Virus record (IMG/VR): IMGVR_UViG_2541047857_000011
Direction: 5' to 3' (one strand)
Length of the DNA stretch: 43,118 nucleotides
DNA from: a virus
Taxonomy: Duplodnaviria; Heunggongvirae; Uroviricota; Caudoviricetes
The notes under the pieces: model-generated
Told to the model about the DNA's origin: nothing
Seen by the model: only the letters and a program-made list of their open reading frames with translations
The model's database searches: none
Made by a program: the position numbers and the translations under genes
Part shown: positions 1-35,838 of the stretch, piece by piece
Numbering within the stretch: the first letter of the stretch is position 1
How the letters are laid out: each line of letters opens with the position of its first letter

Positions 1-2109
1 TTACACCATACTGTTAACCTGGCCGGGTAATTCGCTAGCTGGAATACGAAAGGTATACCAGGCATAACGACAGCGTTTCCACAGGCTGGAGAAATGGAGA
101 TGATAAAGGCAATCTGCAATAATTTCGTTATCTGGATATAAAGACTCGGCAAAATGTGTCCAGCGCGCACTGAGTTTCATGTTAAACAGTTTTTCATCTT
201 CTTTGTTACCATACAGGCGCGACAAAGTAATCATTGCTTCGAGCGTACCTTTATTCGCTTCTTCTTGTACCTGTTGGAGGTGCAAATGAGCAAGTGAGAG
301 TTCTTTCACCTCAAAGATATTAAGTAAAAAAAGCCCCCATGCTTTTTCATGTCCAGCTTCATGAGCCAGAAATAAATTGTCAAGGAGATTTTTTTCATAA
401 ATAGCCCGTGTTTCTTTAGAAATTTCTTGTTTATTTAGTGCCTGGTAGCAGATAGCAATGCTAAAATAAATATTTTGTAGATCTTGTTGATGTTCGCTAT
501 AACCATAATTTTTTACCAGTGGATAAGATACCGAGCTATGGAAATTTAGGTCATCTTGAAGTATTTTAAGTGCCCGTCGAAAATACTCCAAAGCTGTAGA
601 TGGTTCATAAGGTAATTTTGTATTGTCTTCCTTATCCAAATATTCAAGAGCAACTAAATTTAATGCGGCAGGAATATTTCTTTGCTTACCAATTGTCGCA
701 AGCGGAATGAAATAATCAGAAAGGTCAAACCAACTCAAATCTTTTATTGCCGACCGCCAATTATGATTGTATTTAATGTCACTAGCTTTTTCCAGCCAAG
801 CATCGCCCTGCCCTTCATCTTTTTCAAAACCCAAAATACCCTCTCGCTGGAAAAACCCCCTATAAATAACAGGTGTAGCATAAGTTGTATTCTGTGAATT
901 TTGGCAGATAAAATTATATATCCAGAATGAATCTGGATAATAACTTAATGCAAATTTTATCGCGTACGCAGTGTAATAATTATTGAGCTTCATGTCTTCC
1001 ATCACCGCTCGCTGTATACAGCACCACAACTTATCGTGATCGTTCTGCTTGTTATAGCAGGCAAGTAACCACTCTAGGGCATTATGGCGACATTCCTGAA
1101 ATTGTGCGTACTGAGCAATATTCTCTGCTAAGTCGATTGCATATTGTTGCTCCTCGGGCGCAATGTCCTCAATGCTGACATCTCGGTAATCATCCCACCA
1201 AAGTAAGAGATCCATATAGTCATGTTCTTCGGTAGATAAGTGCTTACAGGTTACTGAATCCAGCAATTCGGAAATTTCTTTATGCGACCCTCCCCAGCGT
1301 GGCATTCGAAATGGTATATATTCAACAAAAGGATAAAAAGTGTGAGGAAAAATAGTCAGGCAAACAGAAAGCCAATATTTTTGCCCACCATCATCATCAT
1401 ACTCAGGAAGTATATTGGGGCGAGGCAAAACGGGGCATATTGCATGCTCAAACGAAAGTCCGGAATACGCCATCAACGCTTCCACTTCTTGCGGGGAGCG
1501 GCGGTGATAATTTTTCAGTGCGATCATTAATGGTATTCCTGCGACACTATCACCGTTAAGGTGTGCCGCCAGCCAGGCTGGCTGACCAAATACTTTTGAG
1601 TTGGTGCTGGTAAGTAATGCAGCCATCCATTGTCGTGGGTCACAATCAATTGCTTTAAGTGTAGCGATGACCATTTGTTCATTACATGCACCAGCACAAA
1701 GCCACATTGCATGTGTGGTATCATTTGCCCAGCCATAACTGCGATATAACCATGCACGGTGATTCCAGTATTGTGCTTCGGCAAGCCAGGCATGTGTAGA
1801 ATGAGGTCTTGCTTGCTGCCAGGTTTTAATGAGTCTTAAACCTTCTGTTCCGGCATCAACTAGCGTGTTCATATCATAAAAATAGTTGCACATTTGGGTC
1901 CAGGATAAAAAATAGCGCTTTTCAGCCTGACGAGAAGTGAAACTCTCCTGTAATACCTGGTTATAAATTTCATCTAGTTCCTGATAACGTTTTTCTTGTA
2001 ACATATAAGGAATATTTGCGATTTGCCATTTTCTCTCAAGAGTATTAAGTGGCATTTTTTGGTCACACATCTTTTGCATTGCACTGAGTAAACGAGCATC
2101 CTGTTCCAT
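1..2109 (-). CDS. Hypothetical protein, ~702 aa, third gene of an AT-rich operon; Trp-rich, no motif recognised
   Basis: Complete ORF with stop at 1-3. Start chosen at ATG 2107-2109 (MEQDARLL) because AAGGA lies 7 nt upstream; track alternative start is 2148. Lies 10 nt after the stop of the upstream gene. Visibly AT-rich compared with yegQ. Confidence 0.55.
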   Translation of the reverse strand: MEQDARLLSAMQKMCDQKMPLNTLERKWQIANIPYMLQEKRYQELDEIYNQVLQESFTSRQAEKRYFLSWTQMCNYFYDMNTLVDAGTEGLRLIKTWQQARPHSTHAWLAEAQYWNHRAWLYRSYGWANDTTHAMWLCAGACNEQMVIATLKAIDCDPRQWMAALLTSTNSKVFGQPAWLAAHLNGDSVAGIPLMIALKNYHRRSPQEVEALMAYSGLSFEHAICPVLPRPNILPEYDDDGGQKYWLSVCLTIFPHTFYPFVEYIPFRMPRWGGSHKEISELLDSVTCKHLSTEEHDYMDLLLWWDDYRDVSIEDIAPEEQQYAIDLAENIAQYAQFQECRHNALEWLLACYNKQNDHDKLWCCIQRAVMEDMKLNNYYTAYAIKFALSYYPDSFWIYNFICQNSQNTTYATPVIYRGFFQREGILGFEKDEGQGDAWLEKASDIKYNHNWRSAIKDLSWFDLSDYFIPLATIGKQRNIPAALNLVALEYLDKEDNTKLPYEPSTALEYFRRALKILQDDLNFHSSVSYPLVKNYGYSEHQQDLQNIYFSIAICYQALNKQEISKETRAIYEKNLLDNLFLAHEAGHEKAWGLFLLNIFEVKELSLAHLHLQQVQEEANKGTLEAMITLSRLYGNKEDEKLFNMKLSARWTHFAESLYPDNEIIADCLYHLHFSSLWKRCRYAWYTFRIPASELPGQVNSMV

Positions 2110-2119
2110 AGATATCCTT

Positions 2120-2836
2120 TTAATTAGGTTCAAAAATTTTAAATTCATTCCACGGCAATTTTTTCCAGTTACTGGATGGATCTTTCAACCATGCAGTGAC
2201 TTCCTTTAAATCACGGTTCGCAGTGGCGACGGGGGTATCGTATATCATTAACCATTTTTGTCGGGCGCGAACATAAGCACTGGCATAATCTTCCCATGAA
2301 GCGAAACAATCTTGTGCTCTTTGAGCATTCAGTAATAACACTATCCAGGCCTGGTTTTCATCGCACCAGCCTAAACCGGCGATGCAACGAGTTAAAAAAG
2401 CAGTGCGCATACAGTCAAACGCCAGCCCATCCAGAACCTGGCCTTGTGCTGCCAGTTGTTCGTAAAAATCATGTGGAGAATTACCAAGCCCTGTAGCCCA
2501 GCGCTGTAATATAACGCCAATTTGTTGACGGAAATCTTCGTTGCTTTGGTAAGTTTCTGTTCCTAGCTCTTGTTTAACCTGTAGTGCAAGTTGTTGACGC
2601 TTATCATCAGTCAACTTTAAATCTAACGTGAAGCCATTTACTGACAGTCCATTACGACGAGCAACTATATCACCAATTGCTAATGCCCACTTACGTCTCT
2701 TTGTTGCTCGTCTTTTGTCCTTGATTAGATCCTTTTCTTTTTCTTTAGCAATAAAAGCATCGATTTGTGGTTTGTTTTTTTTGTATCTATAGATAAAAAT
2801 AAATATTGCGACCAGGAGAACAATGATAAGACTCAT
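2120..2836 (-). CDS. Membrane-anchored hypothetical protein, 238 aa; N-terminal TM helix; C-terminal region resembles DUF1266-type proteins (tentative)
   Basis: Hydrophobic N-terminus MSLIIVLLVAIFIFIY followed by a Lys/Arg-rich stretch. Start ATG overlaps the stop of the upstream gene (ATGA at 2836-2839). The DUF1266 resemblance is from memory, not a search. Confidence 0.55.
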   Translation of the reverse strand: MSLIIVLLVAIFIFIYRYKKNKPQIDAFIAKEKEKDLIKDKRRATKRRKWALAIGDIVARRNGLSVNGFTLDLKLTDDKRQQLALQVKQELGTETYQSNEDFRQQIGVILQRWATGLGNSPHDFYEQLAAQGQVLDGLAFDCMRTAFLTRCIAGLGWCDENQAWIVLLLNAQRAQDCFASWEDYASAYVRARQKWLMIYDTPVATANRDLKEVTAWLKDPSSNWKKLPWNEFKIFEPN

Positions 2837-4050
2837 TATTTTTCAACCTCTGACAGGGGTAAGTAATGAGATGTCTGTAATGTCAAACTCTCTATCTCAA
2901 AGGAAATGTTGCTGATATTTTGACCTGCAAATTGCGGATGCCACTCAGCGCCAGGGAATAACATTTCCGCAGAAGTAGCAACTATAGGGTCAATAGCATT
3001 AAGATAATGTAACTTATCAGGTGCGCTGTGTAACAGTAACCACTGCAACTCCACTGAAGGATTTGTAAAATGTTCTAATAAATGAAAGTTATTATGTAGT
3101 ACGCTTAGTAAAAAACTGGTTTCGTATACTTCCGTTACATATTTCCACCCCTGATATTCAGGTGTATTTTCATAAACAATACCCATACCTTCACAATCAC
3201 TATGTCGAACTGCTTGTGGTGATAATAGTTGCAAAAGAGACAAAACATCGTCCGCATATTTTTTAACTGGATGACGATTTTGCTTACCTTTTATTTGATC
3301 AATTTCAAGTGAATCACCAACAACATTGAGAGCAATAGTAACATGAGGAATATTATTATTATCACGCAAACTGAATAACCGTAATTTATGTTGCTCAATT
3401 TGATTTGCATAATACTCACCATAACCACCGGTAAGATTTTTTCGATCATCAAACTGGCCTACGCAATGTTGCATATGCCATGATTCATAAGCCATTTCAC
3501 GACGAAGGTTCGAATGACTGGCATCAAACTCAACAATTTTTCCGTCTGGCACATCAAGTATTGACTTTACAGTATTTTGTTCACTCGGCTGCCACCCTTT
3601 CTCGCGTCGTTGAAGCATCTTTTCATGCTCTTCTTCACGCATTCTGAACGCAACGTAGCAGGTTATGCGCTGTAGTTTTGATTCCAGACGGGTACCACAT
3701 TTCCTGGAAAGAAATTCCACCAACTCCCGTTCTTTGGTTAATATTTGTTGATGATCGGTTTCGATATAATAAAGTGTCGCAGTTGATACTGAGGCAGTAT
3801 TAAACTTCGATACCAGCCATTCCGGGATTACATCATCATTTTTATTAAACAGTGAATATTCTGCAAGCGAGTTAATTTGTTGCACCATTGGAAAGTCACT
3901 AATTAGCCATCGATAAAAATGGTTGAGTAACCATTTTTGGATGGTCTCATTATCCTGGCGAAACAGACTTCTTTGCAAAATTGCTGTTTTTACTTCCGGG
4001 GCATTAATTACATCCCTTGCATTATAATTCTGGTGAATATTTCCAGTCAT
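2836..4050 (-). CDS. Hypothetical protein, 404 aa, first gene of the AT-rich operon
   Basis: Long ORF preceded by an AT-rich promoter-like region (4051-4270); translationally coupled to the downstream gene. Contains an HMQHCVGQ...YGEYY segment; no family assigned confidently. Confidence 0.55.
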   Translation of the reverse strand: MTGNIHQNYNARDVINAPEVKTAILQRSLFRQDNETIQKWLLNHFYRWLISDFPMVQQINSLAEYSLFNKNDDVIPEWLVSKFNTASVSTATLYYIETDHQQILTKERELVEFLSRKCGTRLESKLQRITCYVAFRMREEEHEKMLQRREKGWQPSEQNTVKSILDVPDGKIVEFDASHSNLRREMAYESWHMQHCVGQFDDRKNLTGGYGEYYANQIEQHKLRLFSLRDNNNIPHVTIALNVVGDSLEIDQIKGKQNRHPVKKYADDVLSLLQLLSPQAVRHSDCEGMGIVYENTPEYQGWKYVTEVYETSFLLSVLHNNFHLLEHFTNPSVELQWLLLHSAPDKLHYLNAIDPIVATSAEMLFPGAEWHPQFAGQNISNISFEIESLTLQTSHYLPLSEVEK

Positions 4051-4537
4051 AACATCCGCCCGTGTTTATTATATCACTCAAAGCAATAATTGTTGACTAT
4101 AGATTTTTTATCTAAATCAGCATGGTTGCAGGTACATACTCAAGTAAGCCACTCAAGAAAATAACGTAAACTCAATAGTGGCAGCGTCACAAACTTTGGA
4201 AATTATGTCTTATATTTGCAGTTTATTTTAGTGAATAATTGAGATAAATGACATTATTTTACATCCTCAATAATTCAGGCTGTAAGAGGACGGCAAATAC
4301 ATTCATAATTATCAGGGGATGAACATTCAGGAAAGTAGTCAGTATCGTCAACTTTTTCTTTTATCACTACATGAAGATTTCGTGTAGATACTCCCATCTC
4401 TGCCACTTCTCCCCTCACATTTACACTGGAGCTAAACCCGCCGATTGCGCTACAATGCCCGCCCTTAAAGTGGGGGCACTCCCCTAACCGCTTCATCAGG
4501 TGAAGCGGCTCTGACCTGTCATCAGAACGAGAGAATT

Positions 4538-11583: not shown

Positions 11584-12774
11584 TTAATTGCTGTTAACCG
11601 AGGTGACCAGATTTGCCAGGTATTTATCGGTAATACGCTGGCGCAGGGTCAGGTTTTCAAGAGGAGGCACCGGTGTATAGTCGTAGTCGATATACAGTTT
11701 TCCGGCCTTGAGGGTTTCCGCATCGTTGGATTCTTCGCTGAACCAGCAGGTCGCATCCACGATATAGCCGTTTGTTTTCAGCTCACGGAATTTGGCATTG
11801 ATGCCGTCAACGATGTCGCGAATCAGCGTTGCGGTGATGGGCTTGTCCACCGCCCACATGTGCGCCTCAGCCATCGTGTCGGCCATCACCTGCGCGGTGC
11901 GGGTGTAGTTTTCAAAGAGGAACAGCGGGTCATCAGAGCAGGTACGGTTACCCCAGAATCGGAAACCGTCGCGGCGAATCAGCGTAGTGACGCCTGACTC
12001 GTTAAGCAGGTCAGCATCGGTGCCGGACTCCTGCAAATCCCAGAATACAGATGCGCTGATGCCGGTAACACCGTTTACCCCGACGTTGGACAGCGTTTTA
12101 TGCCAGCCCTGCTCCTGGTCGATTTTAGCGCGCAGACCCAGCGCACGGGCGGTGGCATACGCGGTGGCGGTGGTACTGGTGACCGTATCCCATGCGAGGA
12201 AATCCGGCCAGATGACCATCAGCTCACGCTGGCTGAAATTCTGGCGGTAGGCTTTCACCTCGGAAATGGTCTTACAGCCCCATGCGCTGATATATCCGAA
12301 AGCGCGCAGCTTCTGACAGACGGATGCCAGTGCAACAGCCACCTCTTTGGTATCCAGTCCCGGCACACCGAGAATACGCGGTTTAACACCGGTTACCGAC
12401 TCCGCCGCCAGCAGGGCTTTTAGTCCGGTGTACTGACCGTTTTCGTCGGTGGTGCCGATGATATTGGAAACGGTCTGCGCGAGTTTCGTTTCCTCGTCAT
12501 CACCGGTGCCGTCTTCCACGCGCACGACAACGGTGACCGGTTTTGACTGGTCAGCGATGGCCTGCAACGATGCCGCCAGCGTGCCTTTTTTACCGGCCTT
12601 TGCAATTGCGCTTTGCACATTGGTAATCAGCACCGGTTTATTGAGGGGGAAGGTTTCCGCATCCGCATCGCTGGCCGTGCAGACCATGCCGACAATGGCA
12701 GTGGATACGGTGGAAATGACGCGGGTGCCGTCGTTAATCTCCAGCACCTGCACGCCATGATGATAGTCACTCAT
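11584..12774 (-). CDS. FI: Contractile tail sheath protein (P2 gpFI-like)
   Basis: 396 aa, same size as P2 FI; first gene of the FI-FII-E-T-U-D operon. Confidence 0.9.
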   Translation of the reverse strand: MSDYHHGVQVLEINDGTRVISTVSTAIVGMVCTASDADAETFPLNKPVLITNVQSAIAKAGKKGTLAASLQAIADQSKPVTVVVRVEDGTGDDEETKLAQTVSNIIGTTDENGQYTGLKALLAAESVTGVKPRILGVPGLDTKEVAVALASVCQKLRAFGYISAWGCKTISEVKAYRQNFSQRELMVIWPDFLAWDTVTSTTATAYATARALGLRAKIDQEQGWHKTLSNVGVNGVTGISASVFWDLQESGTDADLLNESGVTTLIRRDGFRFWGNRTCSDDPLFLFENYTRTAQVMADTMAEAHMWAVDKPITATLIRDIVDGINAKFRELKTNGYIVDATCWFSEESNDAETLKAGKLYIDYDYTPVPPLENLTLRQRITDKYLANLVTSVNSN

Positions 12775-12860
12775 CCGTTTAACTCCGTGGTTAATGGGTG
12801 CAACTATTTTCTGTTGTGCAGAGCATAAGACGCTATTTGACCTGGCTGGTCAGTGGATGA

Positions 12861-12898
12861 AACAACAGATAAAGAAAAGGCGGGCAATTCGCCCGCCT
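12861..12898 (-). terminator. Rho-independent terminator between the cargo cassette and the FI late promoter region
   Basis: Hairpin AGGCGGGC-AATTC-GCCCGCCT followed on the minus strand by TTTCTTTATCTGTTGTT. Confidence 0.55.
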
Positions 12899-12953
12899 GT
12901 CCTGATTTGTACTCACTCATTTTCCGCCTGACAATTTACATAGCCCAAATGCT

Positions 12954-12977
12954 ATCAAATCTGACAGTCTGCTTTGA
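12954..12977 (+). repeat. Cassette-flanking site A (core CTGACAGTCTG)
   Basis: ATCAAATCTGACAGTCTGCTTTGA; about 21/23 identical to site B in direct orientation; 16-bp exact inverted match to site C (12958-12973 vs 15392-15407). Confidence 0.7.
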
Positions 12978-13104
12978 GCGAAAAGTGGACATTAGAGTTA
13001 CAAAAGCAAGTTTAAATCATCCAAAATATTACAATGTCCTTATCTATCTGATATCGTTATGATAAAAAGCTCCTGAATATAATCGATAGTAGGTGGTTAT
13101 TTCC

Positions 13105-13482
13105 ATGAAATCAATTTTAGAGGTTTTTACTCAAGGAAATACTAAAGAAAAACTGGCTGTTATCGCCGATCTCACAACCATTGCGGGAATATCGATTGCA
13201 ACTATTATTGCTGGTTTGTTAACCCTAGTTGCAAAAACAGATAAACTAGATGTTGGAAATCTGTTTGGAGTTGTCATAATATCTCTGCTCGGATTGGCTG
13301 GTGTTTGCTGTTTTGTGGCCTTATTTATTTGGGTTATAACCCAAATGTCTAAACCATGGGGAACACCTCGGGGGGTTCAGCCCTTAGTTAAGTGTGCTAT
13401 TTCCCTTATCTTTATCTGTATGTTTTTGCTGGCTGTCTTTACATTTTATGAGTTTATTTCTTCGATGAGCATACGCTATTGA
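13105..13482 (+). CDS. Small integral membrane protein, ~125 aa, three predicted TM helices (prophage cargo)
   Basis: AGGTGG 8 nt upstream of the ATG at 13105; TATAAT-like element upstream; three long hydrophobic segments; AT-rich; opposite strand to the flanking late genes. Confidence 0.65.
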   Translation: MKSILEVFTQGNTKEKLAVIADLTTIAGISIATIIAGLLTLVAKTDKLDVGNLFGVVIISLLGLAGVCCFVALFIWVITQMSKPWGTPRGVQPLVKCAISLIFICMFLLAVFTFYEFISSMSIRY

Positions 13483-13504
13483 ATATAAAATCAGCCCCCA
13501 TAAC

Positions 13505-14089
13505 TTAAAAGAGACCTTCTATATCGACTTCAATGCCCAAATAACGGACTGTGCTTTCCAGTTTCTTATGGCCCAACAGAAGTTGGATCCCCCGGAGACT
13601 CTTGGTTTTCTTGTAGATTAAGTAAGGTTTTGTTCTTCTCATGGAATGTGTGCTGTACAGCGAATCTTCGAGACCAAGCTTTTCTACCCACCCATGAAAA
13701 ATTCGGTTGTATTGCCGGGTTGATATATGGTGGTTAGTTCCGACCCGAGAGCGGAACAGGAAGCCTTTACTATGCCAGTTGCCGAGCTTTATCAATGCAG
13801 TAACCGCTTCCCTTGTCCCTTTGGTTATCTCAAATTGGACAGGGCTGCCGGTTTTCTGTTGCAACACCGTTGCTCTGCTTGAGACAGAACTGCCATATGC
13901 AGCATCTGATACTTTGAGTTTGACCAAATCACAGCCCCGTAGCTTAGTGTCCAAAGCCATGTTGAACAGAGCTAGATCGCGTGTTTTACCTTCCAACTCA
14001 AGTCTAATCCGGATCCCCCAGATATGAGATATCTGAAGTGGCCTTTTTTGACCGATGGTACGGTCTTTATTCCACGGTGACGTTTTCAT
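13505..14089 (-). CDS. Small tyrosine site-specific recombinase, ~194 aa (FimB/FimE-sized, catalytic core only)
   Basis: Start ATG 14087-14089 has AGGAGA 8 nt upstream. Catalytic signature present: R in TKLRGCDL, K in QQKTGSP, HSMRRT (H-x-x-R), LLGH, and Tyr in STVRYLG. No N-terminal arm-binding domain. Confidence 0.75.
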   Translation of the reverse strand: MKTSPWNKDRTIGQKRPLQISHIWGIRIRLELEGKTRDLALFNMALDTKLRGCDLVKLKVSDAAYGSSVSSRATVLQQKTGSPVQFEITKGTREAVTALIKLGNWHSKGFLFRSRVGTNHHISTRQYNRIFHGWVEKLGLEDSLYSTHSMRRTKPYLIYKKTKSLRGIQLLLGHKKLESTVRYLGIEVDIEGLF

Positions 14090-14195
14090 ATTCAAATCTC
14101 CTGCAATGTGGGAGATTTGAGTATGGTTGTCTCTCAAGAGCGAAAATAAGTCAACTATCACTAGTTGTTGCGCATGTACGTATTCTGTCAATTAA

Positions 14196-15038
14196 TTATT
14201 GACAATCATCAATTCTGGAATGATCAAAATCATCATATCGAATTATAGTCTGGTTGACTGTATCTATTGTTGGTGTCATTTCTGTTATAATATCCTGATA
14301 ACCTAAAGAGTTAAATACATTTACTAAGGCCTCACACCGAAGGGCCGTAGCAATTACAAAATTATAAATTGCCAGCCGTTTATTTTCTTGTTTAACTGCA
14401 AGAATGAATTCGATAGCAGTATTTTCATCACTTTGGATTGCATTATATAGAGATACTATATTTACCATATCATCAGAGAATGTATGTATTGAATCACAAA
14501 GAGGAACGTAATGGGCATGATAGTGTGTTTCCCAGCCAATTAATTCAAAAAGTTTTCTGGTTCCTGGATATTCAGGTGTATTTGGCCACAATCTATTAAA
14601 TAGATCAGTTAGTTCTTTTCCCATGCGAATCCTTTCATTTGCTGCTGGATTAGTCATTCCTTTGGATTTTAAACACTCCAGCCACCGTTTTCCATTACTA
14701 TGAACTAATTTCTTACTAGCCTTGAGTAATGCTTGTGCATTTTCGCCATCATCTATTGCTATATAAAATTGATTGGCAGCCTGTTCTATTATAACCCTAG
14801 CTAATACTTCCGATGCTGAAAAGGCTCCTATATTCAAAGAAGAGATAGCCTGATTACTAAGTTCATTCAGTACATTAAAGTACTGTAAGACCATCAATTT
14901 TTGTTCCACACCCTTTAGGTTGTCTATTTTATTTTTATGCTCCTCAAATTTTGCATGGATATATTTATTTATCGCGGCTATTTTTTTTACATCTTCGTCA
15001 AGATCAAACGGGCAACGTCCAAACAATTCTTTTTTCAT
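14196..15038 (-). CDS. Hypothetical protein, 280 aa, unknown function; co-oriented immediately upstream of the recombinase
   Basis: ATG at 15036-15038 with AGGAGA 6 nt upstream; AT-rich; no nucleotide-binding, RT or nuclease motif recognised. Confidence 0.65.
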   Translation of the reverse strand: MKKELFGRCPFDLDEDVKKIAAINKYIHAKFEEHKNKIDNLKGVEQKLMVLQYFNVLNELSNQAISSLNIGAFSASEVLARVIIEQAANQFYIAIDDGENAQALLKASKKLVHSNGKRWLECLKSKGMTNPAANERIRMGKELTDLFNRLWPNTPEYPGTRKLFELIGWETHYHAHYVPLCDSIHTFSDDMVNIVSLYNAIQSDENTAIEFILAVKQENKRLAIYNFVIATALRCEALVNVFNSLGYQDIITEMTPTIDTVNQTIIRYDDFDHSRIDDCQ

Positions 15039-15263
15039 ATATTTCTCCTGTTGTACAAGCTTCCATAAGTTGGCAGATTATACACTGAAGATTACCTATA
15101 AATAGCTGTGCGGGATAGCAGATCAGTGCAAGAAGTACAACCAAGTGAACTGTGCGTATTCAGATACCTGGCCTAACGTTCGCGATAGCCGTCCCCTGCA
15201 CGAAGCCATATATTAGATGTATTAGCTCAGACCTTATCTGACAGGTTGAGTAGGTAGAATCTA

Positions 15264-15287
15264 ATCAAAGCTGACAGTCTGGTTTGG
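15264..15287 (+). repeat. Cassette-flanking site B (core CTGACAGTCTG), direct repeat of site A
   Basis: ATCAAAGCTGACAGTCTGGTTTGG; a partial half-site ATCTGACAG also lies at 15236-15244. Confidence 0.7.
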
Positions 15288-15391
15288 ACTGTGAGTTCAA
15301 CCGATGGATGCAACACACAGCGATCTACGGACATTACTAGCATAGCTGTGTATTAATCATCGGGAAGCAGGTCAGTCCGCTCCTAGCACAG

Positions 15392-15407
15392 AGCAGACTG
15401 TCAGATT
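15392..15407 (-). repeat. Site C, inverted copy of the site A core
   Basis: Plus strand AGCAGACTGTCAGATT is the reverse complement of AATCTGACAGTCTGCT; lies ~100 bp beyond site B, just downstream of G. Confidence 0.7.
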
Positions 15408-15459: not shown

Positions 15460-15987
15460 TTATTGCGGCATTTCCGGCCATTCAGGATTTGCAGGATCCA
15501 CACGGCTGACCAGAACACTGTAGCGTTCCCATGCTTCCAGTCGGCTACGCTCATCATCTGTTGCCATATTCAGTCTGACAGAGCGTTCCAGTGGCTGAAT
15601 GATAGTTTCAGCTTCGGAAAGCAAAGCTGACTTCTGTAATTCCGCCAGTTGCAGCTGTTCGTCTGCCGTATAAATCCGCTTAATCACGGCACCATCCTTA
15701 AACATCCATTTACCTGAGTCATCAGCACGTCGGTTGGCGGTAATATCAGGAACCTCGACAACGCTAAAACCTTCAGGGTTGAGCGTTGAAGCATCTCTGG
15801 TGATGCCGACAATTATATTATTCTCATCGTAAACAATCTTTATCGTGTCTTCCTGAAAATTACTTACTTCCTCATACCAGTTTTTTCCCTCTTCGGACCA
15901 TAACCAGATAACATCAAAATTTTTTGTCAGTTGATATTGGGCAACAGTTTTTGGATTACCCGCAGTAATATTTTTTAAATGCTGCAT
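15460..15987 (-). CDS. G: Tail fiber assembly chaperone (P2 gpG-like)
   Basis: 175 aa, same size as P2 G; immediately downstream of the tail fiber gene. Confidence 0.8.
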
Positions 15988-20520: not shown

Positions 20521-21152
20521 AGAGGTCCCCCGGTTGTGCCGCCGCTGTCGCCGGGGTGTTTATGGGTATGCAGTACCTTACCGTTTGATGAGAGTTCACC
20601 GCCGGTGTGTTCAATGTTGCCGCGCATCGTCCCGCCCTTCTGTACTTCCAGCGTGCCGGTAATCAGTCTGTTGGTGCAGACCACCTCCGGGGTGTCCAGG
20701 GTGATGCGGGTTGACGCTTTCACCATGACTACCGGCACCGTGGCGGTAACAGAATCAGAAGCCGTCACGCTGGCCGTTTTAATTCCGCTTACCATCAGTG
20801 CACTGGTTTCAGGTTCATACTCAATCACCGCCCCGTCAGGGAAACGTATGTGCAGGGCATCCGCCGACGCAGACGGCGGAGGGTTATCGCCGGAATAAAT
20901 CCCCGGCAGAACGAACGCCGTGTCGAGTTCACCGCCCACGGCCAGAATCAGCACCTGTTCCCCCACGGAAGGTGCCCACCATGTGCGTGAACGTCCGGCA
21001 CGATGGGTCAGCCACTGAAGCCAGTCGGTGCACATGCCGCCGGTCTGCACACGGCAGCGACCGGCGTTAAGGTCGGTTTCGACGATAATGCCGGGGCGTA
21101 TCATGTTGCGCAGTGCGCGCGCGAGTTCCTGGATATTTGCGAGTGTTTTCAT
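20517..21152 (-). CDS. V: Baseplate spike/hub protein (P2 gpV-like)
   Basis: About 211 aa from the start MKTLANIQELARAL; alternative start at 21164. Confidence 0.8.
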   Translation of the reverse strand: MKTLANIQELARALRNMIRPGIIVETDLNAGRCRVQTGGMCTDWLQWLTHRAGRSRTWWAPSVGEQVLILAVGGELDTAFVLPGIYSGDNPPPSASADALHIRFPDGAVIEYEPETSALMVSGIKTASVTASDSVTATVPVVMVKASTRITLDTPEVVCTNRLITGTLEVQKGGTMRGNIEHTGGELSSNGKVLHTHKHPGDSGGTTGGPL

Positions 21153-21209
21153 AAGATCTAGCATGCTGCTGAGAACTGATGAGAACAATAAAAGAGTGTT
21201 TTTCTAAGG

Positions 21210-21242
21210 TTGACACAACACTCCATTTGAAGTGAATATAAT
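21210..21242 (+). promoter_or_regulatory. Candidate sigma70 promoter for the toxSAS gene
   Basis: TTGACA (21210-21215) and TATAAT (21237-21242); the spacer is longer than optimal, so the exact -10 is uncertain. Confidence 0.4.
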
Positions 21243-21285
21243 GATTACTTAACTGGCAAAAAAACATCCTCACTAATTGGAGCCA

Positions 21286-22377
21286 ATGGATACACGCATG
21301 TCAGACATTCTAATTACTTATGATGAACGGAAAGATAAATTTGAGTCCTATGCCCTTACTCTTAAATCGTTATTAACCACGTTAATTCGCAATGAAAAAA
21401 TTTCAATTCACTCACTTGAATCAAGAGTTAAAACAAAAAAAAGCCTTGAAGGTAAGATTAATAAAAAGGGAAAATACAAGTCTATAGATGATATTACTGA
21501 TATCGTTGGTATCAGGATCATCACACATTATGCTGATGATGTTGATAAGATAGCTGCTATAGTTGAAAAGGAGTTCACCATTGACCAAGAGAACTCTATT
21601 GATAAAAGAACCTCAATTGCGCCTGATAAATTTGGTTACCTATCACTTCATTATATAGTAACTTTAAACTCAACCAGAACAAACTTAAAAGAATATGAAG
21701 TATATAAAAACATCAAAGCCGAATTACAAATACGATCAATCCTTCAGCATGCCTGGGCGGAGATTGAACACGACATTGGTTATAAGTCGGCCACAGGACT
21801 GCCTAATGAAATAAGAAGATACTTTTCACGCTTAGCTGGTCTTTTAGAAATGGCCGATGATGAATTTATTAAAATCAGAAAAAAGATTTCTGAACGGCAG
21901 AAAGAGGTTGCAAAAGAACTAGAGCAAGGAACTAGTGATTCAGTTTTAGATATTTTCACTTTGGATGAATTCTTAAACACAAGTCGAATTATGAGTGAAC
22001 TTTCAGAAGAGATAAAAGAAAAAACAGGAATCACAGTACATGGCCGATACAAGGATAAAGATTTGGGATACCTACTAAATGGTTTAAACCTAGCCAACAT
22101 AACTACAATAGAACAACTCAATCAAAAACTCTCACAAATGAAAAAGCAGATCGTAGATAGAATATTCTGCTTCGGAGAACCATTTATTAATTATTGCAGA
22201 GAAACCCCCATGCCAAAAGAAGCTCTTTTGAGTTATTTATGTCAAATTATCGTTGCGTTTCAAAACTCACCTTCGTTAGAATCTGAATTTAATAACAAAG
22301 CAGGTTTAAATCTGAAAAACAGCAATATCTCCGATTTTTTCTCGAATATAAGAGAAAACATAAGCACACAACCTTAG
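21286..22377 (+). CDS. RelA/SpoT-homolog toxin small alarmone synthetase with C-terminal extension (CapRel-like fused toxin-antitoxin)
   Basis: Synthetase motifs DIVGIRIITHY, YLSLHYIV and ELQIRSILQHAWAEIEHD in the N-terminal half, then a ~100-aa C-terminal domain; AT-rich; inserted between V and S on the opposite strand. Start could be ATG 21286 or 21298; the track start 21277 is TTG. Confidence 0.75.
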   Translation: MDTRMSDILITYDERKDKFESYALTLKSLLTTLIRNEKISIHSLESRVKTKKSLEGKINKKGKYKSIDDITDIVGIRIITHYADDVDKIAAIVEKEFTIDQENSIDKRTSIAPDKFGYLSLHYIVTLNSTRTNLKEYEVYKNIKAELQIRSILQHAWAEIEHDIGYKSATGLPNEIRRYFSRLAGLLEMADDEFIKIRKKISERQKEVAKELEQGTSDSVLDIFTLDEFLNTSRIMSELSEEIKEKTGITVHGRYKDKDLGYLLNGLNLANITTIEQLNQKLSQMKKQIVDRIFCFGEPFINYCRETPMPKEALLSYLCQIIVAFQNSPSLESEFNNKAGLNLKNSNISDFFSNIRENISTQP

Positions 22378-22406
22378 CTTTAGTTTTAACGTATTCTAAC
22401 AGAAGA

Positions 22407-22432
22407 CTGCTGCCGGTAAGCACCGGCAGCAG
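22407..22432 (-). terminator. Hairpin terminator between the convergent toxSAS and S genes
   Basis: Perfect 11-bp stem CTGCTGCCGGT-AAGC-ACCGGCAGCAG; T-rich tract on the minus-strand side only. Confidence 0.5.
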
Positions 22433-22457
22433 CGATGAGGTGTCGGGAATGGCACAA

Positions 22458-22910
22458 CTAACGCTCAAGGTGAGCCAGGATAATCTCTTCAATCATCTGC
22501 ACATCCTCACCGGTAAAGCCGAGCAGAGGACGCGCCGGATAATCAATTTTCTTACCGTCTTTCCGGGTTTCTTCCGACAGACCGAACTGATGCACACTGG
22601 CGATTTTCGGTGACTTTCCGCCGTAAAACTCCATTGATGCCTGTTCCGGGCTGGCGCGGATATGCAAAAAACGACTGGTGATAAGTTTCGCAAACATTTT
22701 TCGCTTAACACGACCGGTCTTTTTTCTGGCGCTCTGCTGCTGGCGTGGTGCGTAGGGTGTGCCGTCCGGGGCTTTCTGTGCCATCACCCGGCGCTGCTGA
22801 CTCTGCCGCAGATGTTTCGCCAGTTCGGTGCTCAGTCGCCGACGCCCTGATGGTGACAGTGATTCAATCAGCCCGGTCAGCCGGTCTTCAAAACGCTTAA
22901 ACTCATTCAT
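22458..22910 (-). CDS. S: Tail completion protein (P2 gpS-like)
   Basis: 150 aa, synteny R-S. Confidence 0.85.
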   Translation of the reverse strand: MNEFKRFEDRLTGLIESLSPSGRRRLSTELAKHLRQSQQRRVMAQKAPDGTPYAPRQQQSARKKTGRVKRKMFAKLITSRFLHIRASPEQASMEFYGGKSPKIASVHQFGLSEETRKDGKKIDYPARPLLGFTGEDVQMIEEIILAHLER

Positions 22911-31977: not shown

Positions 31978-33810
31978 TCAAACAGAGCCCTGTTCAAATA
32001 CAGTATCAAAATATGGTAGGAGAGGATAAGCACACAGAAAGAAAATCAGGATGCATGCATATGTCGTTGTTTCATCGTAACAAGCATTAGTATATAAATT
32101 ACCATGTGCTAATTTATGTCTTAAGGTTGCCCCACTCTTTCTATTAAAAAGAACATCGATAGTTAAAACAAGATTCTTAGAAAAGATACTTTCCAAATCA
32201 TCTCTGCATTTATCTAGAAGCTGAGAAATACTTGTTGACTCCTCTAATCCCTTATCCAAATATCTAGTAGCATCCTTTCCACTAAGCTCATAATAATAAC
32301 GAACCATACCTTCCATTTGTGGTATTAAAAGATAAGCTGCACTGATGTAATCTCCCTGCCATAATTTGTAAAAGCCCAAATTAAAAATCTCCCTAAACTC
32401 CGGCTTGACAATTGGACTAGTTGTAACTAATTTAACGAATGTTGACAACGTCAAGCCATGTTCTTGAGAAAGTACATAGCGAGCAGGTTCAAAGACACCG
32501 TTTACAAAAATCTTATGAGTAATCTCGAAATTTCTTAGATATTGATCAATAACAACATCATCACTCATATCTTTTTTATTATTCAACGGCGGGATTGTAT
32601 ATACCTTACGCCCACTCTCATCATTAATTTCTGTTCCAACAAAACTAGAGAATAAACTTTTTTCTGATAATCTTAAAACTTGCTCCCTCATGCTTTCAAT
32701 ATTTTCAATCGGTGTTTCACGCATTAAAACTTTGAATATATCGGGCAAAGAACGCCCCGTCAGTTTTTTTTCACTTTCAGCAACCAAGTCACTAATATCA
32801 ATAGAATGGCTTAAAGTGACATATTCACTCCTTACTTCTTCTCTCAAATTAGCAAGTTGTTCCTTTAAATCTTCTATCTGTTGGCTATCACCACCATACT
32901 GTCTTAATTCAGAGATAGCTGTTCTTAACCAAGAGATCTTACCCATATTATCAGGTCGATCTGTTGCAACTTTAATAGTAATATTTGCAGATGCCAGTTT
33001 ACATCTCTTGGCACGTTCATACTCACCATTTTTTTCATAAATAACTGCACTTGTCATATAAAGTGATTTTACAGCATCATAATATTTTTTATCTTTATGC
33101 TGCTCAGCCATCTTCTCAGCATTTTCCGCATACTGCAGATTATACCCATCAAAATCACGCACCATAAACCAAGTCAAATTATTGAAACCTTCAAAGATTA
33201 ATCTTTCATTTTGAATACTATAAAGAGAATGAATGGCATTTTTAATCGCCATGTTTCCTTCTGATTTTCTAGGGTAGACCATTTTATTAATGTGCAAAGC
33301 CCTAGCAATATAATCACGAGCAAAAATAAAGCAATTTAAATCACTTTCATCCATGCTTTCGTTTTTTATTATTAGTTTTTCAATTGCTATATTTAGCATT
33401 TCAGCATAGGAATCAATTGCTTTAATTGCCACGTCTTTGTTTTTCCGGTTATTACACCAAACAACATCATATATTCTTGATAACAAAAATGGATTGGTTA
33501 TTTTTTGAGAAACATATAAAAGACAGTCATTCACCTGCTCATCAAAATCTTCAGGCAATATTGATCTTTTATTACCCCAAATCATTTGGGGTTCAAATGA
33601 TGGAGTGTTGTTAACAACTTGCAAATTGAAACTATATAGCATACCAAAAAGAGATGCTAATTTTTTCTCTTTGGGGTTTCCTGATGATTCAGCAATCCCA
33701 TCCAGATATTTTTTTATTTTATGTGCATGAAATGTAACTGGTATATGCATAAAAACACTATAATCTAGTGTTTCAAGCTCTTCCCTTGTAAGAACAAAGA
33801 TATCATTCAT
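31978..33810 (-). CDS. Large hypothetical protein, ~610 aa, with C-terminal Rx4HG (HEPN-like) motif; candidate abortive-infection effector at the P2 tin/old position
   Basis: Start set at ATG 33808-33810 (MNDIFVLTREE) with AAGGTGA 7 nt upstream; the track's longest ORF starts at 33912 without an SD. Strongly AT-rich. C-terminal LRHKLAHG; no Walker A motif, so not an Old-type ATPase. Confidence 0.65.
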   Translation of the reverse strand: MNDIFVLTREELETLDYSVFMHIPVTFHAHKIKKYLDGIAESSGNPKEKKLASLFGMLYSFNLQVVNNTPSFEPQMIWGNKRSILPEDFDEQVNDCLLYVSQKITNPFLLSRIYDVVWCNNRKNKDVAIKAIDSYAEMLNIAIEKLIIKNESMDESDLNCFIFARDYIARALHINKMVYPRKSEGNMAIKNAIHSLYSIQNERLIFEGFNNLTWFMVRDFDGYNLQYAENAEKMAEQHKDKKYYDAVKSLYMTSAVIYEKNGEYERAKRCKLASANITIKVATDRPDNMGKISWLRTAISELRQYGGDSQQIEDLKEQLANLREEVRSEYVTLSHSIDISDLVAESEKKLTGRSLPDIFKVLMRETPIENIESMREQVLRLSEKSLFSSFVGTEINDESGRKVYTIPPLNNKKDMSDDVVIDQYLRNFEITHKIFVNGVFEPARYVLSQEHGLTLSTFVKLVTTSPIVKPEFREIFNLGFYKLWQGDYISAAYLLIPQMEGMVRYYYELSGKDATRYLDKGLEESTSISQLLDKCRDDLESIFSKNLVLTIDVLFNRKSGATLRHKLAHGNLYTNACYDETTTYACILIFFLCAYPLLPYFDTVFEQGSV

Positions 33811-33926
33811 CGTTTTCACCTTTTTCAGTATAAATTTGCACACATTATTAGCAACATAATTATCAATAGTTAACACATGTAGATAAACAGCAATTTTACT
33901 ATTATGCAACAAATTAAATCAGATGT

Positions 33927-35838
33927 TTATTGCTCTGAATAACAATAAAACCAACTCCACTCATCAGCGACCGGATACGTAAATTTTTTCCCGTTGTAAT
34001 CTACGGTCGCACCACGCGCCAGCGCCTCAAGCTCCCATCGCTGCGGCCTGATACCGTTCTGAGCAAGGTCAACGCGGATACGGGTAATTTGCATTCTTTC
34101 CGACCGGGTCAGTCTGGCCGATGGCGCTATTTCATGCGGTTTTAACGGGCTTCCGTTTCTTTGCTGACGGTTTGGTGTTATCAGGTCGTGTTTTAATGCG
34201 CCCCTGAGCGCCCTCACGACCTCCGGGTCATTCCATTCGATAACACCGTCATCAACCAGATTAAGCACTGCTGCGGCGTGTTCAGAAGGTGTGGGAGCCG
34301 GTAACGAAGTATCACCACTGGTGAGCTTTCCACAGTTATTGACAGGACTCCGAGGCGCGGCGATGCCGCTTTTTAAAGTCAAAGGCTCCACGACCGGAAC
34401 TTTCGGAACAATGCGCCAGTCCGTCGTTCTGGTGATATGAATATGACGCGCGCCGAGATGCGGCGCGTAAATGCCGACCACTCTCTCGACTTCTTCCTCG
34501 TACTCGTTAACTTCATCCGACGGGCTACGGGCGACTCTGACAGTCTGGCAATCGCGCGGAACATTTGCCCCACCCTGCGCACTGATATACAACGCAAAAT
34601 CGCCACTGTCTGCGGCAGCGCGTGCAGCCTCGACGCGTTCGTCAAACTCATCAGCAATGCTGACGCCGCGAGGCAATTTGCGTAGTTCACGGTAAGCCCC
34701 CATTGTCGGCAGACCAACCGTTTTAAATTGCGGGATGCGCCACGTTGACGCCCATGCAGTAACAGCCGCGGCAGTATCTTTCAGAGGTCTGCCGGTATCG
34801 TTATCGAGCTGACCATCCAGTGCATAGCCGTCGATATTTTTTGAAATGTATTTCGCGATATATCCCGCAGCACCGCCCCGGTTAAGGTGCTTTGCCTGAA
34901 AACGGTTTCGCGCGGCTCCTCTTTCGTCACCATCCTCTTTGAGCGCATAGCGACGCATGATTTCGATAATCTGATTACGCTGGCGTGGATTACAAAAAAG
35001 CATCATATGCCAGTGCGGCGTTCCGTCGTGGTGTGGCTCGACGACACGCAAACCGTAGACCTGTAAATCATTATCCTTGAATGCCGTGCGCATCAGGCTC
35101 CAGATGCGGCAGAGATAACGCTGCGCATCCTTTGGATTAAATGCCTCATCGTTCCAGCCGTGATTTAGCTGGACGGTTTTACTTTCGCCTTTTCCGACCT
35201 GACGTGTCGGGTGATACTTTGACGGCGCGGTCAGCGTGATAAACATCCCCACATCACCCTCTGCGGCGGCGTAACGCTCAATACCGGCAATGGTGTTCAT
35301 CAGCTCCATCCGGCGAATTTCAGGATTAGAAATACTTCCCATCACCTTACTGATAAGGTCGATGCGCTCGCCGGTTTCCCTGTTTTCAAGGTCACACGAT
35401 TTAAGAAATTCCAGATTTGCCTGGCGGCGCGCACGCACATCACGAATGGCATGTTTACTGGCATAAGGAGAACGGTCTTTATTGACCTCCCCGACAGCAA
35501 TCAGTAACGCTTCATGCCAGCGCATACGCTGACCTTTAAGCTGATGAGTCCACCACTCATCGTTAAACAGGCGGGCAATGGCAGAATATGCCTGCCTCGT
35601 GGTCATCTGTCCTTTACGGTATTTTTTCCAGTAAAGCGGGGAAATATTGAAAGCACGTGCAGCGCCAGCAACATGACCATACAGGTGAGCCTGAGCCTCA
35701 TCCGTAAACAGTGATTCTTTTTCGCCATGCGCATCCCCCCAGGCATCGCTGATTTCCTCATACATCATGAAAAGCTGCGATGAGATACGGGCGGCAAACT
35801 TTTTCAGCTCCTTATCATTCATCCCCGGCAGACGCGCA
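33927..35838 (-). pseudogene. A: P2 gpA replication initiation protein, C-terminal ~637 codons, separated from its 5' end by an IS insertion
   Basis: Reading frame continues ...ARLPGMNDKELKKFAARISSQLF... as in P2 A; the apparent ATG at 35873 lies inside the IS end. Confidence 0.85.

Follow-up and report, generated by a model that had tools for sequence, protein, structure and literature searches.

The stretch of DNA analysed here, hereafter the window (43,118 nucleotides; IMG/VR record IMGVR_UViG_2541047857_000011), is a P2-like prophage identical to one in E. coli S88. Three open reading frames (ORFs) are enclosed between the genes for tail sheath FI and tail-fibre assembly protein G, and they encode a membrane protein with three predicted transmembrane (TM) segments, a small tyrosine recombinase and a DUF5677 protein (Table 1). 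An earlier note on this DNA, made from the letters alone, had described the first and the last of these as candidate effectors of a tail-hotspot module; both ORFs exist as it described them, and the annotation of the identical S88 locus by the Prokaryotic Genome Annotation Pipeline (PGAP) contains the same ORFs. The 2.8 kb around these genes was 100% identical to E. coli S88 and MS7163. The G+C fraction (GC) was 0.35-0.36 at positions 13001-13500 and 14001-15000 and 0.46 in the recombinase stretch, in comparison with 0.51-0.59 in the tail genes. The interval is a variable AT-rich insert with conserved backbone on either side, as in hotspot cargo, which bears out the AT-richness noted before. 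Its position between FI and G is the Z/fun position of phage P2 (the FI–G hotspot). Validated defence genes are known from this region, which Vassallo et al. (2022; PMC9519451) named a 'second defence-enriched locus' with fun, and it was the source of fun and of three PD systems (PMC9519451); the claim that the interval is accessory cargo in a locus known for such genes therefore stands.

Table 1. Features of the FI–G interval, and site junctions at compared loci (L numbers). Positions without an L number are those of the window.
Feature	Position	Strand	Evidence
Tail sheath FI	11584-12774	-	
FI-side border: A-type core GTCTGCTT-tgagcgaa-AAGTGGAC (12967-12990), preceded by outer flank ATCTGACA	12959..12990	.	
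Perfect -10 TATAAT, 21 nt upstream of membrane-gene ATG; weak -35	13078..13083	+	sequence reading
Three-TM membrane protein, 125 amino acids (aa), phrog_4155	13105..13482	+	ORF call, PGAP, phrog match
Small tyrosine recombinase, 194 aa	13505..14089	-	PF00589 6e-17
Left arm and loop of membrane-gene terminator hairpin	13507..13523	.	L023 comparison
15-9-15 inverted repeat (mRNA hairpin in which Shine-Dalgarno sequence and ATG of the recombinase are base-paired)	14087..14125	-	repeat search, RNA fold
Degenerate A-type site GTCTCTCA-agagcgaa-AATAAGTC at recombinase 5' end	14129..14152	.	homology break at spacer TCGCTCA
DUF5677 protein, 280 aa, mini-element cargo	14196..15038	-	PF18928 5e-10, phrog_4167, AlphaFold2 model
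Extended -10 TGTATAAT, about 40 nt upstream of DUF5677 ATG	15084-15077	-	sequence reading, conservation
Site B, degenerate direct copy (71% over 49 nt) of P2 flank and A-site left arm	15238..15295	.	repeat search
G-side border and cargo-side end of the element: C-type core GTCCGCTC-ctagcaca-GAGCAGAC (15375-15398), then outer flank TGTCAGATT	15375..15407	.	
Tail-fibre assembly G	15460-15987	-	
C-18 nt-A junctions	L022 2426-2491; L024 7546-7611; L025 2839-2904; L026 6107-6172; L028 5779-5844		

The three hydrophobic segments of the membrane protein (about residues 17-43, 52-79 and 96-118) fit three TM helices by inspection. Good Shine-Dalgarno sequences, as previously stated, were found upstream of both this gene (AGGTGG, 8 nt before the ATG) and the DUF5677 gene (AGGAGA, 7 nt before the ATG). 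The sigma70-like promoter that had been assigned to the membrane gene was confirmed in part: its -10 hexamer is perfect and is also kept upstream of the Enterobacter homologue, but its -35 is poor and a consensus scan for promoters detected no sigma70 site before the gene. Homologues of the membrane protein were found across Enterobacterales at 58-99% identity. In E. coli Ec1119 (L023) an identical gene stands alone in the same P2 hotspot, and in CD306 (L022) the gene comes after a DUF6650 gene, again in the P2 hotspot. In Enterobacter (L035 2805-4979) and Serratia (L033 3501-5676) the membrane gene is followed by a convergent gene for a 556-aa STAND-like P-loop nucleoside triphosphatase (NTPase), which matched nSTAND1 at 5e-6, slightly below the Pfam cutoff, and whose gene lies at 3309-4979 of L035. 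The E. coli P2 cassettes keep only the last 53-59 codons of this NTPase gene (81-89% identity), and in the window this stub is also gone. Because the pair is present in other genera, a stub remains in E. coli and nothing remains in the window, we regard the membrane gene as the orphan of a two-gene cargo. The cassette would originally have held the three-TM protein and the convergent NTPase, and only the membrane gene would survive here.

The pairing of a three-TM protein with a STAND-like P-loop NTPase in the ancestral cassette resembles systems that combine a sensor NTPase with a small transmembrane effector; it differs in that the pair is not in PADLOC and the NTPase is absent from the window. 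The pair gave weak PADLOC matches only (PDC-M28C 3.5e-5, mad8 4.7e-4) and looks like an undescribed two-gene candidate system. The membrane protein of the window is probably a remnant without its likely sensor, and either inactive or at most a weak exclusion factor.

The second gene encodes a protein that scored 62.3 bits with PF00589 (Phage_integrase) and belongs to the tyrosine recombinases. Sequence inspection showed that the candidate catalytic residues R51, K79, H148, R151, H174 and Y183 are retained, and that the protein is altered from residue 190, after Y183: the native C-terminus DALEISESIEV is replaced by IEGLF, and the last 11 codons are lost. From 168 to 183 of the 194 residues were identical to the 200-aa recombinases of seven other contexts. 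The gene and the hairpin at its start were present at about 90% identity in 848 of 5426 complete E. coli genomes, and the ratio of nonsynonymous to synonymous substitution rates (dN/dS) between elements was 0.09-0.10, indicating strong purifying selection. No match was obtained among PDB sequences, and neither the recombinase nor the membrane protein matched a family of PADLOC-DB v2 at E ≤ 1. The start hairpin has a folding energy of -17.4 kcal/mol (z = -5.2), is kept in 11 contexts with compensatory changes, and probably keeps translation of the recombinase low. It was also considered as a recombination core, but its sequence is unrelated to the sites described below and has no partner elsewhere, and it was kept as a translational hairpin.

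The cargo beside this recombinase varies, with at least six different cargoes among eight sampled contexts. Sister elements carry PD-T7-1 (3.7e-157) or HEC-08 (1e-173; in one genome with a DRT type 1 cassette next to it), both of which are experimentally validated defence genes, and others carry unannotated proteins of 476, 314 and 191 aa or, in Enterobacter, the membrane protein and NTPase pair. The neighbouring cassettes were DRT type 1 and Septu. On a 100-kb NDM plasmid (L027 3963-6136) the same recombinase was seen with a co-directional cargo, an unannotated 476-aa protein, beside IS26.

We analysed the sites at the ends of these cassettes by pattern search. Two types were found, both of them 8-8-8 palindromes: a C-type site, GTCCGCTC-ctggcaca-GAGCGGAC, and an A-type site, GTCCGCTG-tgagcgaa-AAGCGGAC. 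Each cassette has an A-type site at one end and a C-type site at the other, and where cassettes follow one another in tandem the join is a C-18 nt-A junction. This junction was present in 680 of the 5426 E. coli genomes, with 1-3 occurrences per genome; it is unannotated and was intergenic in all matches listed. When 11 regions upstream of the recombinase were aligned, homology stopped exactly at the spacer of GTCCGCTC-cTCGCTCAt-AAGGGAC. The recombinase unit has a C half-site 3' of the recombinase, beside its terminator, and an A-type site at the other side. In Enterobacter, the recombinase, membrane and NTPase genes stand at a chromosomal, non-phage site between two copies of a 16-bp perfect direct repeat, GTCCGCTTCTGGCACA. 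The predicted 78-nt empty site of the element carrying the recombinase and HEC-08 was found at 100% identity over its full length in at least 11 genomes, and strain NCTC9022 carries this island, its flanking proteins identical, with the element missing. Sister elements therefore show the precise presence and absence, and the duplicated core, of a site-specific integrative element, and these comparisons point to mobility driven by the recombinase. It would integrate itself and its cargo at C-type sites and swap cargo at the A-type site beside its own 5' end, like an integron with attI.

Both borders of the hotspot are such sites. They are conserved in P2-like phages with unrelated cargo, and are the only A-type and C-type sites in the 43-kb window. 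In every P2-like phage compared, the two sites and their outer flanks (AATCTGACA / TGTCAGATT) make up a 33-nt inverted repeat that encloses the cargo. A site of the same C type terminates recombinase elements in L025, L026 and L028. The FI-side A site is a hybrid, whose left arm is backbone and whose spacer and right arm belong to the membrane cassette (L022 compared with L023), and this is what a crossover within the spacer would produce. At the recombinase 5' end, the counterpart of the degenerate A-type site is, in sister elements, an attI-like junction between recombinase unit and cargo; homology with other elements stops at position 14143, and the site is degenerate in all DUF5677 copies. 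Site B, on the upstream side of the DUF5677 promoter, accompanies the element when it occurs in non-P2 contexts and is conserved in L014 and L007. Two forms of inversion were considered and rejected: a fimS-like invertible promoter between Site B and the C-type site, since B is a degenerate relic that travels with the element (orientation variants among genomes were not searched), and inversion of the whole cassette between the A-type and C-type sites, since these are backbone borders in P2-like phages with other cargo.

The join between the two parts of the interval was located by comparison with Ec1119, to which the window is homologous over 12701-13523 and, after a gap, again from 15376. 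In Ec1119 the membrane gene has a full terminator hairpin, AAAAGAGACCTT-CTAT-AAGGTCTCTTTT. In the window, the junction 13523|13524 joins the loop of this terminator to codon 189/190 of the recombinase gene, and the homology of all recombinase-bearing loci starts exactly at 13523. A mini-element of 1.85 kb (13524 to about 15398) would have inserted at the C-type site on the G side, in a prophage with the membrane cassette already in place. A later deletion, about 400 bp long and running from the terminator loop (13523) into recombinase codon 190, may have removed the NTPase stub together with the final 11 codons of the recombinase gene and the terminator and half-site on that side, and so fixed the element in place. 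Since the recombinase lacks these codons and the element lacks its own end site, the element in this window is probably immobile.

The distribution of the genes agrees with two separate parts. The membrane gene was present in 64 and the DUF5677 module in 55 of the 5426 E. coli genomes, and the three-gene arrangement in 36, with identical junctions in all of them. DUF5677 and the recombinase were found together without the membrane gene in a Buttiauxella metagenome-assembled genome (96.6% DNA identity) and in E. coli lambdoid prophages (87-90% identity). No conserved co-occurrence of the three genes across contexts, as expected of a co-evolving operon, was seen. Because the membrane gene, DUF5677 with the recombinase, and the recombinase each occur independently, the genes do not form one module; the earlier view of a single module, with effectors working alongside the recombinase, is not supported, and the three genes have separate histories. 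The reading we prefer, with a probability of about 0.55, is that two cargo cassettes, unrelated to each other, have become joined in this interval of the P2 FI–G hotspot, one reduced to an orphan membrane gene and the other a recombinase mini-element carrying DUF5677 as its likely defence cargo. The recombinase is best interpreted as the enzyme that mobilises the DUF5677 cassette and not as part of an immune mechanism.

The DUF5677 assignment itself is clear, at 40.1 bits with Pfam PF18928 (cutoff 27.1) over residues 50-194, and the RefSeq name of the identical protein is DUF5677 domain-containing; no match was found in NCBIfam. DUF5677 is a small family, with 11 proteins obtained from 5.8 billion sequences and 34 by a profile search, and with 80 clusters among 1.84 billion representatives. 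AlphaFold2, run with 29 sequences, gave a confident all-helical model of ten helices (mean predicted local distance difference test (pLDDT) 90.6, predicted template modelling score (pTM) 0.88). The polar residues R81, E85, Q86, N89, Y177, C181-D182-S183-x-H185, S188-D189 and R221 are invariant. Profile and structure searches agreed with the earlier statement that the protein has no recognisable ATPase, nuclease, reverse transcriptase or HEPN signature; HEPN nuclease membership was considered and rejected, since the C-terminal R-x5-H is not conserved. The extended -10 is kept in three unrelated contexts, the Buttiauxella and lambdoid copies included, and the Shine-Dalgarno sequence is conserved too.

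Next to the lambdoid copies (L005-L008, e.g. E2348/69), in which the recombinase is frameshifted and DUF5677 intact, lies Septu (PtuA 1e-165, PtuB 1e-83); this locus is close to hokD and rem. A Morganella homologue of DUF5677 adjoins the candidate system PDC-S05. Among 18 DUF5677 loci compared, no conserved partner gene was found besides the recombinase at some loci. In the Buttiauxella genome (L014 3164-8314) the DUF5677 element stands in an array with more A/C-type sites (3764, 4505, 8252 and 8291), so the site system reaches beyond E. coli; the array also holds a Hin-like serine invertase and unannotated ORFs. In Pseudomonas fluorescens (L020 4482-7709), a 35%-identical DUF5677 homologue lies beside a recombinase homologue split by inversion, with a 41-nt inverted repeat inside the recombinase ORF, and both recombinase pieces look decayed.

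DUF5677 is by association a good candidate for a single-gene defence, and among its possible functions we rank such a role, against phages or other mobile elements, first, at roughly even odds. This role is favoured because the gene occupies the cargo slot of defence-bearing cassettes, lies in the P2 defence locus, has a conserved promoter, is under purifying selection and in Morganella neighbours PDC-S05. PD-T7-1 and HEC-08, the latter a HEPN protein, are single-gene defences that hold the same slot in sister elements; DUF5677 differs from them in having no sequence or profile similarity to either. It would work as a single cytoplasmic protein, expressed from its own extended -10 promoter and acting through the invariant residues listed above.

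Several observations weigh against the two-cassette reading and the defence role within it. The DUF5677 protein matched no PADLOC-DB v2 family at E ≤ 1, and fold searches with its model gave no informative match. For these two reasons we infer only tentatively that the invariant polar cluster, as its conservation suggests, forms a catalytic or ligand-binding pocket, which is a weaker guess than the defence role. The neighbours of distant DUF5677 homologues are mostly unannotated and not known defence genes, and in the RADS study a distant DUF5677 ORF from Bacillota did not protect against the six E. faecalis phages used (PMC12632615, PMC13552941). The membrane gene stays intact in its 64 genomes and might still work alone. 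The element of the window has no recombinase-side end and its A-type site is degenerate, so that mobility is not readable from this copy, and for the PD-T7-1 element no empty allele was found in the genome collection.

One alternative is that the membrane and DUF5677 genes are both morons that serve something other than defence, or serve nothing at present, as lysogenic conversion genes or decaying hitch-hikers. The membrane gene has lost its partner and has a dN/dS of 0.75 within E. coli, from only 10 differences; the element is probably fixed, and selection on its recombinase seems relaxed, with a dN/dS of 0.69 against the closest intact relative, also from few differences. In addition, tblastn of the 125-aa and 280-aa proteins against 50,697 sequenced phage genomes gave zero matches. 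However, the dN/dS of DUF5677 across contexts was 0.22-0.37, which indicates purifying selection, its promoter and Shine-Dalgarno sequence are conserved, and the neighbours of the cassettes are enriched in defence genes. We consider this alternative unlikely.

It is distinctly doubtful that DUF5677 is instead an accessory factor of the recombinase (for directionality, regulation or cassette maintenance) and not an immune protein. In three contexts the gene directly precedes the recombinase gene on the same strand, the Pseudomonas homologue also stands beside a recombinase, which is 53% identical, and the DUF5677 domain is enriched beside serine recombinases in Bacillota according to the RADS study (PMC12632615, PMC13552941). 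However, about 800 genomes have the recombinase without DUF5677, most DUF5677 homologues have no adjacent recombinase, DUF5677 stays intact and under purifying selection even where the recombinase is a frameshifted pseudogene, and it fills the slot that PD-T7-1 or HEC-08 holds in sister elements.

The A/C palindromes are, as GC-rich hairpins at gene ends, open to another explanation, namely that they are mere terminators or flanks for homologous recombination and that the recombinase is an unrelated integrase remnant; most P2 hotspots have no recombinase gene. This is improbable, since breakpoints fall inside the 8-nt spacers, a precise empty site with half-site duplication exists, a perfect direct repeat flanks the element at the non-phage site in Enterobacter, and the recombinase is under strong purifying selection in a unit that in every case has a C half-site on one side and an A site on the other. 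That DUF5677, the recombinase and the membrane protein make up one three-gene defence system with the unknown proteins as effectors is highly improbable: the trio is adjacent with the same junctions in its 36 E. coli genomes, and in a defence hotspot, but its genes are distributed independently, the membrane cassette meets the recombinase at a scar left by a deletion, within a terminator loop on one side and the recombinase ORF on the other, and the conserved partner of the membrane protein in other genera is the NTPase.

A wider reading than that of two fused cassettes is possible and is offered tentatively. The locus may belong to an undescribed integron-like platform of Enterobacterales, in which a minimal recombinase inserts, excises and swaps mostly anti-phage cassettes, with the P2 borders as docking sites and DUF5677 as a new defence family. 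Cassettes with PD-T7-1, HEC-08, DRT1, the TM and NTPase pair or DUF5677 would be exchanged among P2-like tail hotspots, lambdoid prophages, CP4/leo-type islands and plasmids. No description of the sites, the recombinase or DUF5677 function was found in the literature searched, which was not exhaustive.

The platform was compared with integrons (IntI, attI, attC), including the chromosomal ones that store anti-phage cassettes. Both have a tyrosine recombinase gene with a recombination site on its 5' side, cassettes with or without a promoter, composite palindromic junctions and defence-enriched cargo, and the breaks at the A-type spacer in 11 contexts suggest that cargo is exchanged beside the recombinase 5' end; the analogy is one of layout only. 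In contrast, the recombinase has 194-200 aa, compared with about 320 aa for IntI, which has an extra domain, and it scored far below the cutoffs of the integron integrase models (NF011946, 17.4 bits against 435; TIGR02249, 17.5 against 265), so that it is not an integron integrase by these models. The sites are double-strand 8-8-8 palindromes and not folded attC, the junctions contain no GTTRRRY boxes, the arrays are short, with 1-3 junctions per genome, and the recombinase unit moves with its cargo into phages, islands and plasmids.

Minimal tyrosine recombinases of the FimB/FimE type are similar in having about 200 aa and little beyond the catalytic domain. However, the score with the invertase model NF007371 was 20 bits against a cutoff of 222, and the evidence here (empty site, direct repeats) points to insertion and excision rather than promoter inversion. 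With the P2 Z/fun hotspot of fun and the PD systems, the interval shares the G–FI position and AT-rich cargo that can be lysogen-expressed; it differs in that its cargo matches no described system, and the literature searched gave no description of conserved palindromic borders or recombinase-borne cassettes for that hotspot. The small serine recombinases of the RADS study, used as defence markers, likewise stand beside variable defence cargo (PMC12632615, PMC13552941), but they belong to another recombinase class and another host phylum. That study found tyrosine recombinases to be unreliable baits (PMC12632615, PMC13552941).

Three further AT-rich islands (GC 0.31-0.45) break the prophage backbone, at about 1-4500, 21000-22500 and 32000-34000 of the window. 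No A/C-type site was found in them, and they are probably accessory or defence loci, for example at the old/tin position.

The content of defence hotspots in prophages and islands turns over rapidly, and this locus offers a concrete mechanism for such turnover, whose parts are a very small recombinase, defined sites, a precise empty site and identifiable cassettes. Adjacent genes in a hotspot should not be taken for one system. The recombinase together with the A/C-type sites would serve as bait for new defence genes in E. coli and its relatives, and DUF5677 and several unannotated cargoes would be the first candidates from such a bait.

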